Origin: a virus
Lineage: Duplodnaviria > Caudoviricetes
Length of the DNA stretch: 36,074 nt
Direction: 5' to 3' (one strand)
Virus record (IMG/VR): IMGVR_UViG_3300020044_004534
Span: 1-36,074 of that record
Below the pieces are notes generated by a model, which saw nothing but the letters and a program-made list of their open reading frames with translations, did no database searches and was not told the DNA's origin. This document shows positions 410 through 13,586 of this stretch, piece by piece; the first letter of the stretch is position 1, and the number at the start of each line of letters is the position of its first letter. Position numbers and translations under genes: made by a program.

Positions 410-2022
410 TATCCTGCTGCTGCTCCTGATGTCATTTGAATTGCTTGCCAGTTAGCTGTACGACCAGCGTTTCCTGCTGCTGTACCAGCCCAAGCGTAAA
501 CAGTAAAACCTGATGCTGTAACGCTACCAACTGTCGCAGAGGTTGAAGCGGTAGAAGACACCAATGTTGCTGTAACAATTGGTGCAACGCTAAATCGTGA
601 AGCTGGAAAAGTAACAGAGGCGCTTTGTGTTACAGAGACCGAGCCAGCAGCCATGCGGTAAGGGATACCAGTTCCAACTATGTTTCCTGAAACATTAACA
701 TCGCCAGTAGTTAAGTCAACTGAAAGCGCAGTAACATCATAAATTCCGTCGCTATTGGTGTCACCTAGAACGTAGAACTTTCCGCTATTTGCACCAATAA
801 AAGCATCTACATCGCCAATATCCGCAAATCGGATGTTTGGGGCTGCTCCTTGCAAAGTAATTGCAGGGGTTGAGGCTACAGAATTTGACCAGTTAGACTC
901 GTAGGAAGAAACAATGCTTCCTCCAACATTAATTTGACCACCTGAAAAATTTATCCCTAGAGGAGCTGCGGCACCATTGTTACGAACTTGAATTTCATTA
1001 TTGTCAATAGCCATGTTAAGGGCAGATGATGAACCAATTTGAAGCGCATGACCAGTAGAGACTAAATCTAAGTCGGTTGTGCTTGTTAGTCGAATAACTG
1101 GAGATGTTACGGTGCCAGTAAATGTAGGTGATGCAAGTGGAGCTGCCTCTGGAACATCCTCAAGATTGTGCGTATGTCCTACAGCCGCAATACCAGCATC
1201 GAATAATCCTCTGTTAATCCAAACGCTTCCACTACGTTGCAAAATCTGACCTGAAGATGGTGAGTTAATAGAAACATCATGCAACTCTTCAAGTTCAAAA
1301 CCATTCTGAACTTTTACAAAAATCTCACCATTATTTTGCTGGGCTCGGGTAACAATACCAATAAACACTAAGTGATTTGGTGTATATGGTTTATTTGCTA
1401 AACCAAAAAGCAAAGTACCAGAAGGGCCAAGCCAAACAGGATCCCCAACCGTTGCTGTGCTCGTATTAATACCAGCAAGCAAACCTTCTGTAATTACAAA
1501 ACCAAAGCCATTAATTGCTAGATTTTGAGCAATAAGTCCCATGGTTTTTGAAGAAGTTGATTCTGAGCTGTATGATGCTAAACCAACAATCATGTTAGTT
1601 CCAGAACCGCCAGTTGAGCCAGTTACATATACTGGTTGACCAATGGTTAATGCAACCCCAGCTTTTACTTCATGCTTAACCTGTGACGTATAGTTGTCAA
1701 TCCAAGTTGTATTGTAATCAACAGTATCAATTTTTGCAAGAATCTGACCAGTGGTTCCACCAGCAGGTACACCAACACCATCTTGACCTGGCACACCAGG
1801 AGAAGGTTCAACCCATGCACCGTCGTAGTAAATGTATTGGTTAAGAGTAGTTTCATCAAGCCATGTGTCGCCCTCTACAGGGTCAATTGGTGGTGTTGGG
1901 CCAACAAAATATCTTCCAGGCTCACCTTGTGGACCAGCAGGACCAGTTGCGCCATCAGCACCATTAACACCATCAACCATACACCATCGGCACCAGCAGG
2001 GCCAACAAGAGAAGCCAACCAT
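409..2022 (-). CDS. Fibre protein, C-terminal part (collagen tail, DUF2190-like segment, beta-rich C-terminal domain); probably continuous with the 2639 ORF via a frameshift near 1980
   Basis: G-X-Y repeats resume at [18 protein letters not shown]; GDTWLD and ELHDVSI fibre motifs; the first ~15 aa of the track ORF look non-coding. Confidence 0.75.
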
Positions 2023-2639
2023 TCAGCTTCTGTGCCAGTAAACCCATCCATTTGAGCAACTTGGTAAGCTGACAAACCAGTCAAACCCTGAGAACCTTGA
2101 GGTCCTGTCGCACCTGTTGCACCAGTTGCGCCAGTATCACCCTGTACGCCTTGGATGCCTTGAGCTCCTTGTGGACCAGTCTCGCCTTGAATACCTTGCA
2201 AACCCTGTGGACCAGTAGCGCCTGTAGCACCAGTGGCTCCAGTCTCACCTTGAATACCCTGCGGCCCCTGAGGGCCTTCAGGACCGGTTAAACCAGTCTC
2301 ACCCTGGATTCCCTGAGGACCCTGGATTCCCTGCTCTCCTTGAGGCCCCTGAGGGCCTGTAGCACCATCTAAACCATCTGCGCCCGCAGGACCAGTAGCC
2401 CCCTGCAAACCCTGCTCACCCTGAATACCCTGAGGACCAGGCTCACCCTGAGCACCCTGTGGACCTTCAGGACCTTGAGGACCCGCAGGACCCTGAGGAC
2501 CAACAGTTCCACCACCAGTGCCAGAGTCGCCTCCGCCACCACCCATAGGGCGTTTCTCGAGCTTCTTAATCTCAAGCTCAACCTTATCGCCCCACTCCTG
2601 AGACTGGGCAGGTAGATTGCTATCTGGAAAAATAATCAT
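1875..2639 (-). CDS. Collagen-like fibre protein, N-terminal part
   Basis: ATG 2639 ([10 protein letters not shown]...), long GPQG/GATG repeats, [21 protein letters not shown] motif common in phage collagen fibres. Confidence 0.8.
1925..2505 (-). repeat. Collagen G-X-Y coding repeats
   Basis: Tandem 9-nt-period repeats encoding GPQ/GAT/GIQ. Confidence 0.9.
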
Positions 2640-2648
2640 GATACCCCA

Positions 2649-2658
2649 ATTATACCTT
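2649..2658 (-). promoter_or_regulatory. Late promoter -10 (AAGG-TATAAT), near-leaderless
   Basis: TATAAT 9 nt upstream of ATG 2639. Confidence 0.55.
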
Positions 2659-2742
2659 AGAGAAAAAGAAATGCCCTGGAACAAAAGCTCAACAGGGCAT
2701 TTCTATGTGAACACAACACACAGTAGGCAGGAGAAACCTACC
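2659..2742 (-). ncRNA. Candidate small RNA with anti-SD loop
   Basis: TGC-TATAAT at 2748-2756; hairpins with loops UUUCUCCUG and UUGUGUU; 12-bp terminator stem AGAAATGCCCTG/CAGGGCATTTCT plus U-tract; no credible ORF. Confidence 0.55.
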
Positions 2743-2760
2743 CTGCAATTATAGCACAGG

Positions 2761-2795
2761 GTAAAAGAAAACCCCCACCGAAGTGGGGGCTTTCC
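2761..2795 (-). terminator. Intrinsic terminator after major capsid gene
   Basis: CCCCCAC-TTCG-GTGGGGG followed by TTTTCTTTT on minus strand. Confidence 0.9.
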
Positions 2796-2808
2796 AATTT
2801 GGAGCTTA

Positions 2809-3912
2809 TTAAGCGCCTGCACCAGTTGATGCCATGGTACCAGCAGGAACCAAGAAACCACCAGTAGCAATGTGACGAATACGCATCTCGAAGTCGTCGT
2901 TGTCGAATGAACCATCGCGAGCAGGAACGTCGCCTCCACCAAGGAAGGTTCCACCGTTCATCTTGATGCGAAGCTCAGGAGTCTCGTAACCACGAAGGAA
3001 ACCAAGAGCAACTGAAGGGTTCAAGGTTGCAGTCGGAACTGGAATTAGGAACCAGAAAGCGTCTGCAGAACCGTTGATCTTCTTAATCCAAGGGTTAACA
3101 ACAATCTCAACCTGTGAACCGATTGGGTTGCCTGAGATGGTACGAGTGGTTACGTCGCCAACAACAGTGTCAACCTGAACGGTCTGAGTTGCAAGAATCT
3201 TGCGAGCAGTTAGCTCAAGAGCCGCAGGGATAACAAGAGCAAACTTTGAAACAGGAGTAACAGGCTTACCGTTGTAGGTCTGCAAGTTAGCAGCCTGGAT
3301 TGCAAGCTCAAGGTTCTCAAGAGTCAAAGCACCGTTACCTGAGTAAAGGTTCTGGTTGGTTGAGTTGAAGTTAGCGGTGTTTAGACCAGCAACAGCAACA
3401 AGCTGCTTGGTAACTTCTTCATCTTCCTTGCCGGCAGCCTTAAGAGCAAGCTCCTGAGGTAGACGCTCAAGTAGACCAACGTTGCCGTCGTTAACGATAG
3501 CTTCCCATGAGAAACGGATACGCTGACCGGCCTTCTTTAGCTGAACTGACTGCTCAGTAGCTGCGAAGAAACCAGCAGTTGGGTACTCGTCATACTCGCC
3601 AACAGTTGGAAGTGAACCATCACGGTAAACATCGCCTGCGTTGCCCTTGCCCTCATCCTCGTAAGCGAGGTTTAGGTAAGTCTGTGGACGGAAGTCGTCA
3701 AGAACAAGCTTCGATGCGAAACGGTCCCAAACCTTTGGAGCAGCCTCGTAGTTACGAAGAAGGATCTTGTTGATTGCTGGAGTAAGCTGCACAGGTAGGT
3801 CAGAAGTGCTGATACCTTCCTGAAGCTTAAGCTTGTCCATGCGGTCGCCGCTTAGGGCACCTTCGAGAAGCTTTGCAGCCTCTACGTTACGCTGAGTAAT
3901 AATTTCAGACAT
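2809..3912 (-). CDS. Major capsid protein (HK97 fold)
   Basis: 367 aa after protease and cement genes; DFR...L..VGE..EY, GR.F.FSWEAIVND-like motif (GQRIRFSWEAIVND), FDNDD..MRIRH; strong terminator follows. Confidence 0.9.
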   Translation of the reverse strand: MSEIITQRNVEAAKLLEGALSGDRMDKLKLQEGISTSDLPVQLTPAINKILLRNYEAAPKVWDRFASKLVLDDFRPQTYLNLAYEDEGKGNAGDVYRDGSLPTVGEYDEYPTAGFFAATEQSVQLKKAGQRIRFSWEAIVNDGNVGLLERLPQELALKAAGKEDEEVTKQLVAVAGLNTANFNSTNQNLYSGNGALTLENLELAIQAANLQTYNGKPVTPVSKFALVIPAALELTARKILATQTVQVDTVVGDVTTRTISGNPIGSQVEIVVNPWIKKINGSADAFWFLIPVPTATLNPSVALGFLRGYETPELRIKMNGGTFLGGGDVPARDGSFDNDDFEMRIRHIATGGFLVPAGTMASTGAGA

Positions 3913-6772: not shown

Positions 6773-8284
6773 CTACCATGTCCAAGCATCATACAAAGCA
6801 AAATCATTACCCAAAGTAGCAGGATCCATCGAAATAACATCACCAACACTACGCCCAGCATGCGGAGAATTAAACAAAGAATCCAAATTAACCGACGCAT
6901 ACACGGCAGCATCCAAATTGTCAGGAGATTTCACACCACGAGAACGCATATCATCTTTCGATTCAATCTGAATCGCACCAGAACCAGCAAACTTATACCG
7001 CAACATCATCAACTCTTCAAGAAGTTTACTATCATCAGGGTCAATATCAATCAAACCAGCCAACATTTGCTCACGCAAAGAATCAAAATTATAAGCACGA
7101 GCATTAAACCAACGAGTCTTATCAGGAGAAGAAGCCGAACCCAACATCGAAATGACAGTATACTTACCCTCACCCATAGCCGCCAACTGGTCCACAACAG
7201 GGCCACCAAGGCCCGCACCATCCACACGAACCTCACGACAACCCAGTTCAAGAGCAGCCTGATGCACACGGTTAGCAGACTCCAAAGCAGAAGCTTTAGA
7301 CCAAGAAGCATACTTACGCAAACGACCACCACGGTTAATGTAAATGACAGAATCATCCTCACCAAACCGGGCCAAGTCCACACCCATCACAACCTTAACC
7401 TCTTCATCCTCCACAACCTCAGCATCAATAGCCTTATCCAAAGCTGTTTGAGAATAAAACGCCGTATCGTCCTCGTCAGGAAACTCAGCCAAAATCTTAG
7501 ACTTATACCGAGCAGAATCCTCACCCCAAGAAATTTTCTGACGCTCAACCCAAGCAGGTTGAATCAACAAAGGCAACAACTCAGGCTGAACCTCATTCTT
7601 TTCATCAGTAAAATTTGGTGTATCAAACGCCGAAATTTTAATCTTATGCCAAGTAGGATCATCTCTAAAAATTTTATGAAAAGGCGTACCCCTCTGGTCT
7701 GGGTTACCAATCGCCAAAACACGGGCACCCTCAGTGTTAGTAACCGCTTCAGTAGCCGTATACAAATCCTCAGGAATACCACCAGCCTCATCCAAAATAA
7801 CCATCACATAACGGCGGTGAATACCCTGAAAGGAAGAAACCAAATCCTTATCAGCAGGACGACGACCCCAAGCCATCACATAACCATCATCCAACTTCCA
7901 CTCCTGAGACTGATTAATCGACCCAGGCAAAGTCACACCATTACCCTTAGCCAAATCAAAATTAGTTTTAATCTCAGTAAACAAAACACGAGCAATCTGC
8001 ACATAAGTTGGTGCAGAACAAATCACAGCAACATCACGAGGATCATGAGTAGCAACCCACCAAACAGCCAAAATGCCTGCAAGGCCAGACTTACCAGCAC
8101 CATTACAAGACACCACAGCCGTGTGCGTATTCTCAACCACAGACTGTGCAATCTCACGCTGCTTAGACCACAAATCCTTACCCAACACCTCCTTAGCCCA
8201 CAAAGCAGGGTCAGTTAAATAAAGCGAATTTTTAGACCGCCGACGCAAATCAGCAATCACACCATCCAAAACATTATCCAACAT
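6773..8284 (-). CDS. terL: Terminase large subunit
   Basis: Walker A SCNGAGKS, Walker B VILDEA, AIGNP, nuclease GVDLARFG.D and SPD..DA; start likely ATG 8284. Confidence 0.95.
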   Translation of the reverse strand: MLDNVLDGVIADLRRRSKNSLYLTDPALWAKEVLGKDLWSKQREIAQSVVENTHTAVVSCNGAGKSGLAGILAVWWVATHDPRDVAVICSAPTYVQIARVLFTEIKTNFDLAKGNGVTLPGSINQSQEWKLDDGYVMAWGRRPADKDLVSSFQGIHRRYVMVILDEAGGIPEDLYTATEAVTNTEGARVLAIGNPDQRGTPFHKIFRDDPTWHKIKISAFDTPNFTDEKNEVQPELLPLLIQPAWVERQKISWGEDSARYKSKILAEFPDEDDTAFYSQTALDKAIDAEVVEDEEVKVVMGVDLARFGEDDSVIYINRGGRLRKYASWSKASALESANRVHQAALELGCREVRVDGAGLGGPVVDQLAAMGEGKYTVISMLGSASSPDKTRWFNARAYNFDSLREQMLAGLIDIDPDDSKLLEELMMLRYKFAGSGAIQIESKDDMRSRGVKSPDNLDAAVYASVNLDSLFNSPHAGRSVGDVISMDPATLGNDFALYDAWTW

Positions 8285-10555: not shown

Positions 10556-10605
10556 TTTGTGGCTCCTAATTTTGGTGTGGCTCGCCGTGTGGTTTGCCTA
10601 CGGCA

Positions 10606-10634
10606 AGCCTAATCGGTTTGGGTTTGTTTCGCAA
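10606..10634 (-). promoter_or_regulatory. sigma70-type promoter for amidoligase
   Basis: TTGCGA-N17-TAGGCT. Confidence 0.65.
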
Positions 10635-11166
10635 CCCTGTTTCGGCGTGTCGGGAAAATTGGACAAACTTTTTTTGTCCAATTTGGACTTGTCCAAAAAA
10701 TTCGGGCGCAACACTCCCCTATAAAGCCATTAGGCTTGGGGAGTGTTCAGTAAAGGTTTTCGGGTTTTTGCCACCAGTGGGGGGCTGGGGTCCTCCCCAG
10801 TTTCGAGGGGGTTTGGGGGATGGATTCCCCCAATGGAAATGTGCATGGCGACTAAGCCATGCCTTTTCTGGTTTTGGTTTTGGTTTTTGTTTCACCGCCT
10901 TGGGCGGTGCAAAAAGGGTGTAAGGCTTCATGCCTTGAATAATTCTGTCGGGCGTTAGCCCGTCCTAGCGAAGGTCGAGCGGATGCGAGTGCCTTCGTGG
11001 TAGCGAAGCGATTATAACCCCGTTAGCGGGGGCTTGTCCCCTGCTGTAGGGGTTATTTGATGCTTTGCTGCTTGGGGGCCCCACCCACCACCCCTTGCTG
11101 GTTTGCTATGAGATTGTGTTGAGATTGGGGCGGGGCGGATTTTGGGGGGTTTTTCCAAACAAATAC

Positions 11167-11195
11167 TTGACAAGATCATGTTGAGATGTTATAAT
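11167..11195 (+). promoter_or_regulatory. Consensus sigma70/SigA early promoter
   Basis: TTGACA-N17-TATAAT with TG extension. Confidence 0.85.
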
Positions 11196-11251
11196 CTTGA
11201 AATTTGGGGGCAACTTCCACAAAAACATTCCACAAAAAACCCCAAAACAAC

Positions 11252-11280
11252 TTGACAACACGACACAACCATGTCATACT
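11252..11280 (+). promoter_or_regulatory. sigma70-type early promoter
   Basis: TTGACA-N17-CATACT with TG extension. Confidence 0.7.
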
Positions 11281-11313
11281 TATCAGACAAGGACAAAACA
11301 AAAGGAGAAAGTC

Positions 11314-11415
11314 ATGAACTACTACTACAAATGCCAAGAATGTTTCAGGGTTTTCGATATCCGTATTGATATTGAGGCACAGGAGTGGTTTTACGGACAC
11401 GATTGTGAATCATAA
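11314..11415 (+). CDS. 33-aa zinc-finger-like microprotein
   Basis: AAGGAGAAA SD, MNYYYKCQECFRVFD...GHDCES (CxxC...HxC). Confidence 0.7.
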   Translation: MNYYYKCQECFRVFDIRIDIEAQEWFYGHDCES

Positions 11416-11434
11416 ACTTTTTTTCAAAAAACAC

Positions 11435-11463
11435 TTGACAAACACTTCATAAACAATTAGACT
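11435..11463 (+). promoter_or_regulatory. sigma70-type early promoter
   Basis: TTGACA-N17-TAGACT. Confidence 0.75.
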
Positions 11464-11507
11464 TTATAACATAACGCAACACAACAAAAGAAAGTAGGCA
11501 CGATACT

Positions 11508-13328: not shown

Positions 13329-13586
13329 ATGAGAAAAGTAAAAGCGGTTGGTGTTTACACCAACGACGGTTTCACCCCTGTTGCAGTGTTCACCTCTAAG
13401 ATGAAAGCAAAACAGTGGGCTATTGACAACTCGTTTGTTGGCGGTGGCGAACACAAGTCTTTGTATTGTGAATACTTCTACTACATGACACCTGCAGAGG
13501 TTGAAGCGTTGCCTTACACACAATGCGCACAGTTTGAATTGGCTATGCGTTCAGCAATGGACGACTTTGAAAGGAGAAACAAATAA
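13329..13586 (+). CDS. Hypothetical protein
   Basis: SD AAGGAG; TAATG coupling to next gene. Confidence 0.75.
   Translation: MRKVKAVGVYTNDGFTPVAVFTSKMKAKQWAIDNSFVGGGEHKSLYCEYFYYMTPAEVEALPYTQCAQFELAMRSAMDDFERRNK

Follow-up and report, generated by a model that had tools for sequence, protein, structure and literature searches.

Genomic setting and layout of the unit

The analysed stretch of DNA (the window) is a 36-kb virus record (36,074 nucleotides; estimated completeness 74%) with the virion genes on the minus strand and the replication genes on the plus strand, the latter comprising a Cas4-like exonuclease, a Sak4-like protein, a primase, ThyX, a WhiB-like regulator, and two tRNAs. The presence of a WhiB gene and of capsid relatives among Clavibacter, Arthrobacter, Curtobacterium, and Microbacterium phages suggests that the host is actinobacterial. 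A long non-coding stretch rich in hairpins and repeats (10560-11260), possibly an origin or a genome-end region, separates the divergent arms. On the plus strand, a second TTGACA-type promoter and AGGAGAAA lie at 11250-11420 ahead of an ORF of about 33 codons with a CxxC pair, below the size limit of the ORF list, and an open frame of 452 codons antisense to the terminase gene (6860-8218) is probably a shadow ORF.

Behind the capsid gene, whose leader contains AGGA without G as the next base, the minus strand carries a short unit (Table 1) in which an extended -10, a hairpin with a CUCCU loop, a terminator, and a second promoter follow each other in this order. The earlier note had described the unit as self-contained and non-coding, with two loops complementary to the leaders of early genes. 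All coordinates that it gave for the unit (2659..2756) and the pairing sites were correct on re-check: TGCTATAAT is present on the minus strand at 2756-2748, and the named words were located at 13572 (AGGAGAAAC), 20115 and 11478 (AACACAACA), 20127 (AGGAGAA), and 11493 (AGTAGGCA). The 12-bp terminator stem with its U tract is present at 2667-2704, but this extent was incomplete, four more pairs lying beyond the 2-nt bulge at 2691-2692. As the second -10 stands so close to the next ATG, the fibre gene is expected to have no leader, or hardly any, and not to depend on the RNA.

The RNA of the window, 81-84 nt in length, folds with z = -7.3 to -7.9, and none of 200 shuffles was equally stable. With the transcription start at 2742, some of the CUCCU bases are paired in the minimum free energy structure (mean unpaired probability 0.49, lower than in any other of the 50 copies); with the start at 2741, the CUCCU loop is open. 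One low-depth contig of sequencing run X6, probably DNA, falls on 2560-2730 of the window; it matches the terminator and the GU segment and differs in the 5' arm of hairpin 1.

Table 1. Features of the unit, its neighbours, and the candidate pairing sites in the window.
Feature	Position	Strand	Basis or remark
Collagen-repeat fibre gene	1875..2639	-	PF01391; always the directly downstream gene in this clade
Second -10 promoter (AGG-TATAAT)	2649..2657	-	9 nt ahead of the next ATG
Predicted non-coding RNA of ~81 nt	2661..2742	-	Fold z -7.3; covariance model score
Terminator hairpin with conserved 2-nt bulge (U2692, U2691), then U tract	2661..2704	-	Bulge between G-C and G-C/A-U pairs
GU-rich segment, hairpin in the window	2704..2721	-	Candidate second seed for ACA-rich leader elements
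Hairpin 1, loop with invariant CUCCU at 2733-2729 (putative anti-Shine-Dalgarno seed)	2722..2742	-	Conservation, covariation
Extended -10 promoter (TG-C-TATAAT), no -35	2748..2756	-	Predicted start 2742 or 2741
Intrinsic terminator-like hairpin and U tract, end of capsid transcript	2763..2795	-	Sequence, fold; same slot in relatives
Major capsid protein gene	2809..3912	-	Upstream neighbour; matches phrog_133 and others, annotated major capsid proteins of Micrococcales phages
Early-type full sigma-70 promoter (TTGACA-17-TAGACT), amidotransferase gene	11435..11463	+	Sequence
Amidotransferase leader, complementary to GU segment and stem arm	11478..11500	+	Candidate target, not exceptional
AGGAGAAAC, 9-nt match to loop 1	13572..13580	+	One of the 12 AGGAG-led early starts called in the window
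Cas4-like leader with AACACAACA and AGGAGAA	20115..20133	+	Candidate target, not exceptional

Conservation and structure of the RNA

A search with the capsid protein retrieved 136 relatives, 80 of which were kept. The covariance model, built from 14 copies, found one copy each in 61 of the 80 loci, and all 19 loci without a match stop short of the downstream gene. When the model was built without the copy of the window, the window RNA scored 52.8 bits (E 5.7e-10). The bulged-terminator pattern alone matched in 57/80 relatives, CTCCT lying at most 75 nt upstream in all 57, and the same word was present in 40/40 distinct capsid-selected copies defined only by their position ahead of the downstream gene. 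Ten further copies came from a pattern containing CTCCT and are not independent; the first pattern scan, which covered 27 of 64 parts, likewise included CTCCT, gave many matches in coding regions, and was excluded from the independent counts.

The architecture of the unit is uniform. T-A-x-A-x-T of the -10 is invariant in 37/37 copies, and the distance from the -10 to the first stem is 5-7 nt in 50/50. CUCCU is invariant in all 37 copies while its flanks vary, as the proposed check of loop conservation asked, and in 35 of the 37 distinct copies it is predicted to be unpaired (probability at least 0.8). The base that follows is U in 32, G in 3, and A in 2 of the 37 copies, never C; the preceding base (C or U) does not track the use of AGGAGG versus AGGAGA, as judged by eye. 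The loop sits on a covarying stem: the own arms of hairpin 1 form on average 6.7 bp versus 3.6 bp for swapped arms (37 RNAs), a stem of at least 5 bp is found in 36/37 copies versus 25% of the arm-swapped pairs, and all six of its pairs vary on both sides. The outer terminator stem also covaries. In the alignment of the 14 sequences, both partners vary in 13 of the 19 pairs, which none of 500 shuffles matched, the result being somewhat favoured by a structure derived from the same sequences. The two-loop design proposed before holds for the window, where hairpin 2 is real, but this form of the GU segment occurs in only 3/37 distinct copies. The counterpart in relatives is mostly a single-stranded linker or missing; a GU-rich linker is present in 17 distinct copies and in none of the other 20.

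The plus-strand copy of the loop word might be what remains of a ribosome-binding site whose gene was lost or is tiny. AGGAGAAA is found on the plus strand at 2729, and 13/37 copies have a plus-strand start codon at Shine-Dalgarno distance. However, an opposite-strand ORF of at least 30 aa exists in only 3/37, the stems covary, and the promoter and the U tract are on the minus strand; on these grounds this origin is largely refuted and highly improbable.

Known families gave no counterpart. The proposed comparison with Rfam came out negative, as Rfam 15 yielded no family for the unit at the gathering threshold: in the window only the two tRNAs were at or above it, the 19 weak matches by E-value, nearly all on the capsid terminator, were without exception far below it, and the 6C sRNA was absent from the results. 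A BLASTN search with the region found no match in 50,697 annotated phages, and of two distant copies searched in this way one had a single unrelated match and the other none. A strict pattern matched once among 185,579 prokaryote genomes, with neither promoter nor U tract, and this match was judged to be due to chance. The unit is not described in the literature on phage sRNAs that was covered, nor in the available parts of a 2025 review of phage sRNAs (PMC12197685) and of Weinberg 2017 (PMC5737381). No match was present in the three of six supplementary files of Fremin et al. 2023 (PMC10690425) that were covered, and the unit may be among the 8,495 unnamed candidates of that study. Judged from comparative sequence data, the unit is a real, conserved, uncatalogued phage ncRNA gene, standing alone with its own promoter and terminator as the earlier note had proposed.

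Use of AGGAG by early and virion genes

CUCCU is the exact complement of AGGAG, and, as had been claimed for loop 1, this Shine-Dalgarno word is favoured by early genes and avoided by virion genes. Early and late were defined as the strand opposite to and the same as the capsid gene, respectively, and ORFs in uncultured genomes were called by script, stretch by stretch. In 17 relatives and the window (G029, with no capsid match, was left out), AGGAG preceded 190/535 early-strand ORFs versus 46/582 capsid-strand ORFs; 12 AGGAG-led early starts were called in the window. After removal of G015, G017, and G027, which are near-duplicates or have hardly any early genes (G030 and G031 served in the model search only), AGGAG was the most early-biased of the 1024 start-site 5-mers in 14 dereplicated genomes (166/467 versus 33/471 genes, p 4e-28, with orthologous leaders not independent of each other). 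The bias holds in large and small genes alike. Among leaders with AGGA, the next base is G in 156/216 on the early strand versus 29/145 on the capsid strand, and all 14 genomes show this direction. AGGAG was found in 0/14 capsid, 0/14 decoration, and 0/12 protease leaders, while GGAG is present in 12/12 protease leaders; by their sequence, virion leaders retain the 4-mers but break the 5-mer. Inside coding regions AGGAG occurs at 0.72 per kb in late versus 1.11 per kb in early genes.

The same word was counted, as a control, in the annotated structural genes of cultured phages. It leads 38/93 genes in six phages in which no more than 85 nt follow the capsid gene, which leaves no room for a unit, versus 11/87 in nine phages with a longer gap (p 2e-5) and 8/50 in four with a CUCCU-type unit (p 0.003), the groups having been set after the gaps were seen and differing in lineage; the corresponding figure in the clade of the unit is 20/241. 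In relatives (L004-L080), cargo genes occupy the slot behind the capsid terminator, under the same -10-only promoter; judged by their N-termini, they are RNR-like, NrdH-like, and secreted-protein-like, and L012, L013, and L076 have a short lysine-rich ORF. Distinct leaders of RNR, NrdH, and similar cargo genes behind the capsid gene, which share the promoter type, contain AGGAG in 10 of 26 cases.

Phage Yappy has a strand asymmetry of 10/30 versus 2/55 and no match to the covariance model; therefore another cause can produce asymmetry in AGGAG. This bears on the idea that the unit is a cis insulator or leader of the downstream gene and that the Shine-Dalgarno asymmetry stems from, e.g., a RegB-like nuclease or translational coupling. 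In the clade the unit always lies directly ahead of the same gene (50/50, by the definition of the set) and travels with it where cargo genes are inserted behind the capsid gene, and T4 RegB, in the part of PMC3014915 available, inactivates early GGAG-led mRNAs without any RNA. Nevertheless, the unit has its own promoter and terminator, the downstream gene has a separate -10 located 5-10 nt ahead of its ATG, other lineages have other neighbours at this place, and an insulator requires no invariant loop. Against a RegB-like cause in particular, the RegB core GGAG is kept in all the protease leaders, and no RegB match was found among 33 (Pfam) or 55 (PHROGs) window proteins, a record about 74% complete in which absence is unproven. 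A cis role is thus quite unlikely.

Promoter classes and timing

None of the 37 RNA promoters has a -35 matching the consensus at 5/6 positions or better, the best match being at most 4/6. Full sigma-70-type promoters number 61 on the early strand versus 10 on the other strand in 18 genomes, and the portal, protease, fibre, and tail genes of the window have -10-only sites ahead of them. Elements of the -10 type are seen in the window at 83, 2657, and 32846 (minus strand), 5-9 nt before virion-gene ATGs. Leaderless-like starts were counted for 47/582 capsid-strand versus 8/535 early-strand ORFs. By its promoter the RNA belongs to the virion-gene class, from which it is presumed to be made late. 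Seven sequencing runs for window 1900-3900 consist entirely of assembled contigs, which can neither show nor exclude an 80-nt RNA. Near-identical pieces of the capsid gene occur in four freshwater RNA runs from a single study, and none of their RNA-labelled contigs, again uninformative for an RNA of 80 nt, spans the unit.

Pairing with early leaders

The Cas4-like and amidotransferase leaders had been singled out as targets in the earlier note, and neither stood out. Against shuffled RNAs, controls that lack self-structure and hence bind easily, net pairing was no better for the Cas4-like leader (p 0.52), the amidotransferase leader (p 0.36), or the 9-nt match at 13572 (p 0.82). In a ranking of pairing across genomes, the amidotransferase and Cas4-like groups took places 6 and 7 of 41 orthologous groups, and AGGAG is present in only 1/7 amidotransferase leaders. 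Furthermore, the partner of AGTAGGCA is a stem arm and no loop. The best-ranked groups were the Sak4-like and DUF669 genes, with AGGAG in 11/14 leaders each; no single outstanding orthologous target emerged among the 41 groups.

The signal lies in the class. In 13/14 genomes, early leaders outdo late ones in binding to the cognate 5' domain, with p<0.05 in 10. Matching between RNAs and their own genomes gave p 0.001 with near-duplicates included, 0.012 for 14 genomes, and 0.12 with composition control. CA-rich 5-mers occur in 71/248 early leaders of genomes with the GU linker versus 29/188 without it (p 0.001), CACAA ranking first and ACACA third of 1024 5-mers in this association, and neither late leaders nor the coding regions of early genes differed in this way by linker. 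As only three changes of the linker are required on the terminase and primase trees, the tracking of CA-rich early leaders by the GU linker is suggestive.

These results also bear on a variant of the pairing model in which the selected targets are mRNAs of the host or of co-infecting phages, the phage's own early AGGAG being an ordinary strong Shine-Dalgarno sequence. The avoidance by virion genes would fit equally well, the seed is generic, and the cognate matching is not significant after the control, yet the presence of the GU linker goes along with CA-rich words in early leaders of the phage itself, albeit through the three changes mentioned. We regard such a choice of targets as rather unlikely.

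The terminator bulge and related units in other phages

The bulge of the terminator hairpin follows the motif G-U-N-G-A/U-C-C in 36/37 copies, one copy being without it. Within these, the preceding G-C pair (36/36), the bulged U (36/36), and the G-C (35/36) and A-U (36/36) pairs that follow are nearly invariant, and the second bulge base after U is U, A, or C. The layout resembles the arginine-sandwich motif of HIV TAR and 7SK, where, in the part of PMC6189040 available, a bulged U after a G-C pair is followed by G-C and A-U pairs; the bulged pyrimidine, the preceding pair, and the A-U pair two steps above are all found in 36/37 copies. Unlike in those RNAs, the motif is here in a phage terminator stem, where a U:A-U triple and arginine binding are putative. 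Because of this secondary-structure layout, a protein partner of the bulge is plausible. No convincing candidate for a conserved arginine-rich partner was found, the portal and one tail-region protein family being the only conserved arginine-rich ones.

A protein partner would also fit a decoy, i.e., an RNA that mimics the 16S 3' tail and soaks up an anti-SD-recognising host nuclease or protein without pairing with mRNAs. The anti-SD core of the 16S tail, CCUCCU (PMC6107228, in part), is present in 29/37 copies and UCCUU in 32/37, mycobacterial toxins cleave at the anti-SD or beside it according to the accessible parts of PMC12620021 and PMC12274833, and no specific targets were found. However, only CUCCU is invariant: UCCUU is absent from 5 copies, that of the window among them, and the longer 16S tail context ACCUCCUU is retained in 6/37. 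A decoy further leaves the avoidance by virion genes of exactly AGGAG and the association of GU and CA words unexplained, and is in our view unlikely.

In a pattern scan without CUCCU, bulged hairpins (G-U-N-GAG...CUC-C and a U tract) were seen to close what look like small transcription units in many distant phage contigs (L285-L341), some of them behind a terminase most like those of proteobacterial phages. CTCCT lay at most 65 nt upstream of 13/31 non-clade bulged hairpins with a U tract versus 0 and 2 of 45 control windows. Brevibacterium phage LuckyBarnes has a short unit between its terminase genes (L344:2643-2730), with an extended -10 and the same bulged hairpin and without a CUCCU loop; AGGAG is found in 7/15 of its structural genes.

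Unannotated units of a promoter, a pyrimidine loop, and a terminator lie behind the capsid gene in the cultured phages CN1A (L204:4092-4343), Jojan60 (L203:4077-4295), Musetta (L348:9951-10146), Amigo (L202:14423-14687), and CMP1 (L208:4110-4298); only that of CN1A scored with the covariance model (35.7 bits). An in-frame ATG stands in CN1A right after the second -10, upstream of the annotated start. Jojan60 (ON045087.1) was deposited as a Stenotrophomonas phage, and its host label may be wrong because its capsid, Cas4-like gene, promoter style, and RNA type are shared with actinophages.

Interpretation of the unit

To our knowledge, the handover of ribosomes to virion genes in lytic phages that encode neither an RNA polymerase nor a sigma factor is mostly unexplained, and lytic-phage sRNAs with known function are few. 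We lean towards the reading that the unit encodes a class-wide anti-Shine-Dalgarno sRNA, made late, which pairs with AGGAG-led starts and lowers early and host translation while virion genes escape. It is proposed because the invariant CUCCU loop exactly complements AGGAG, a word used early and avoided by virion genes. The features expected of such an RNA were found as far as the molecule goes (its own promoter and an intrinsic terminator, no ORF, a conserved unpaired seed on a covarying scaffold); on the side of the targets, the class-level signal is strong and the gene-level and cognate tests are not significant. Points against this reading are also the AGGAG in cargo-gene leaders of the same promoter type, the lower frequency of AGGAG within late coding regions, the asymmetry of Yappy, and a loop that may be half paired in the window copy. 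From these features we infer expression, late timing, pairing, and repression.

According to this anti-Shine-Dalgarno model, an abundant late RNA of about 81 nt would display a copy of the 16S anti-SD core in its exposed CUCCU(U) loop. The loop would pair with AGGAG as a class and compete with 30S subunits at AGGAG-led starts, so that translation of early phage and host mRNAs would drop; virion genes would escape by avoiding AGGAG or through starts predicted to be leaderless. Where present, the GU-rich linker might add pairing to ACA-rich elements ahead of the Shine-Dalgarno sequence, and the bulge may bind a protein that makes a seed of 5-7 bp effective.

What is new is the genome-wide avoidance by virion genes of the loop's exact complement together with the invariant bulge. 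The model predicts that one Shine-Dalgarno base (AGGAG versus AGGAU or UGGAG) should decide sensitivity. The bulge points to an RNA-binding partner, and variants of the unit are present in cultured Microbacterium and Arthrobacter phages. A joint reading, offered tentatively, would be a temporal switch in the Shine-Dalgarno code: a late RNA-protein particle, with a TAR-like bulge and a mimic of the 16S tail, might silence all AGGAG-led early phage and host messages, virion genes having changed to AGGA-H, B-GGAG, or leaderless starts. On this reading the bulged hairpin would be a separate, widespread phage RNA module that occurs in distant phage contigs as well, in one case with no CUCCU loop.

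Comparison with known systems

The likenesses and differences below are taken from portions of the cited sources. The actinobacterial 6C sRNA (PMC6486639) has pyrimidine-rich loops that pair with many mRNAs and no known RNA chaperone; it differs in being chromosomal and in its two C-run loops, whereas the phage unit has one CUCCU loop (37/37) and a bulged terminator. The cuckoo RNAs of Alphaproteobacteria (PMC4615179) similarly combine an invariant anti-SD-like loop with highly variable stems, but they consist of two to four hairpins each with CCUCCUCCC, in contrast to the single CUCCU(U) hairpin of the phage unit. GcvB (PMC3879156) directs a GU-rich seed against ACA enhancers, much as the optional linker of UGUGUUGUG type would face the ACA-rich words of early leaders. 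GcvB is, however, an enterobacterial chromosomal sRNA, the phage linker is present in only 17/37 copies, and there is no sequence family match between them. Among lytic phages, PAK_P3 (PMC4933390) produces abundant late intergenic RNAs of about 100 nt with proposed silencing of translation; no anti-SD loop is described for them in the part of the source covered, and their proposed targets are tRNA T-loops and single genes.

A parallel in logic is T4 RegB (PMC3014915), for which early mRNAs are singled out by a Shine-Dalgarno word. RegB is an S1-dependent protein nuclease with GGAG as its cleavage site; it is active very early, and late mRNAs containing GGAG are resistant. In the phage unit the agent is a predicted RNA seed, and the late genes avoid the 5-mer itself. 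The unit would thus be an RNA counterpart of T4 RegB, a generic translation-class switch usable in actinobacteria.
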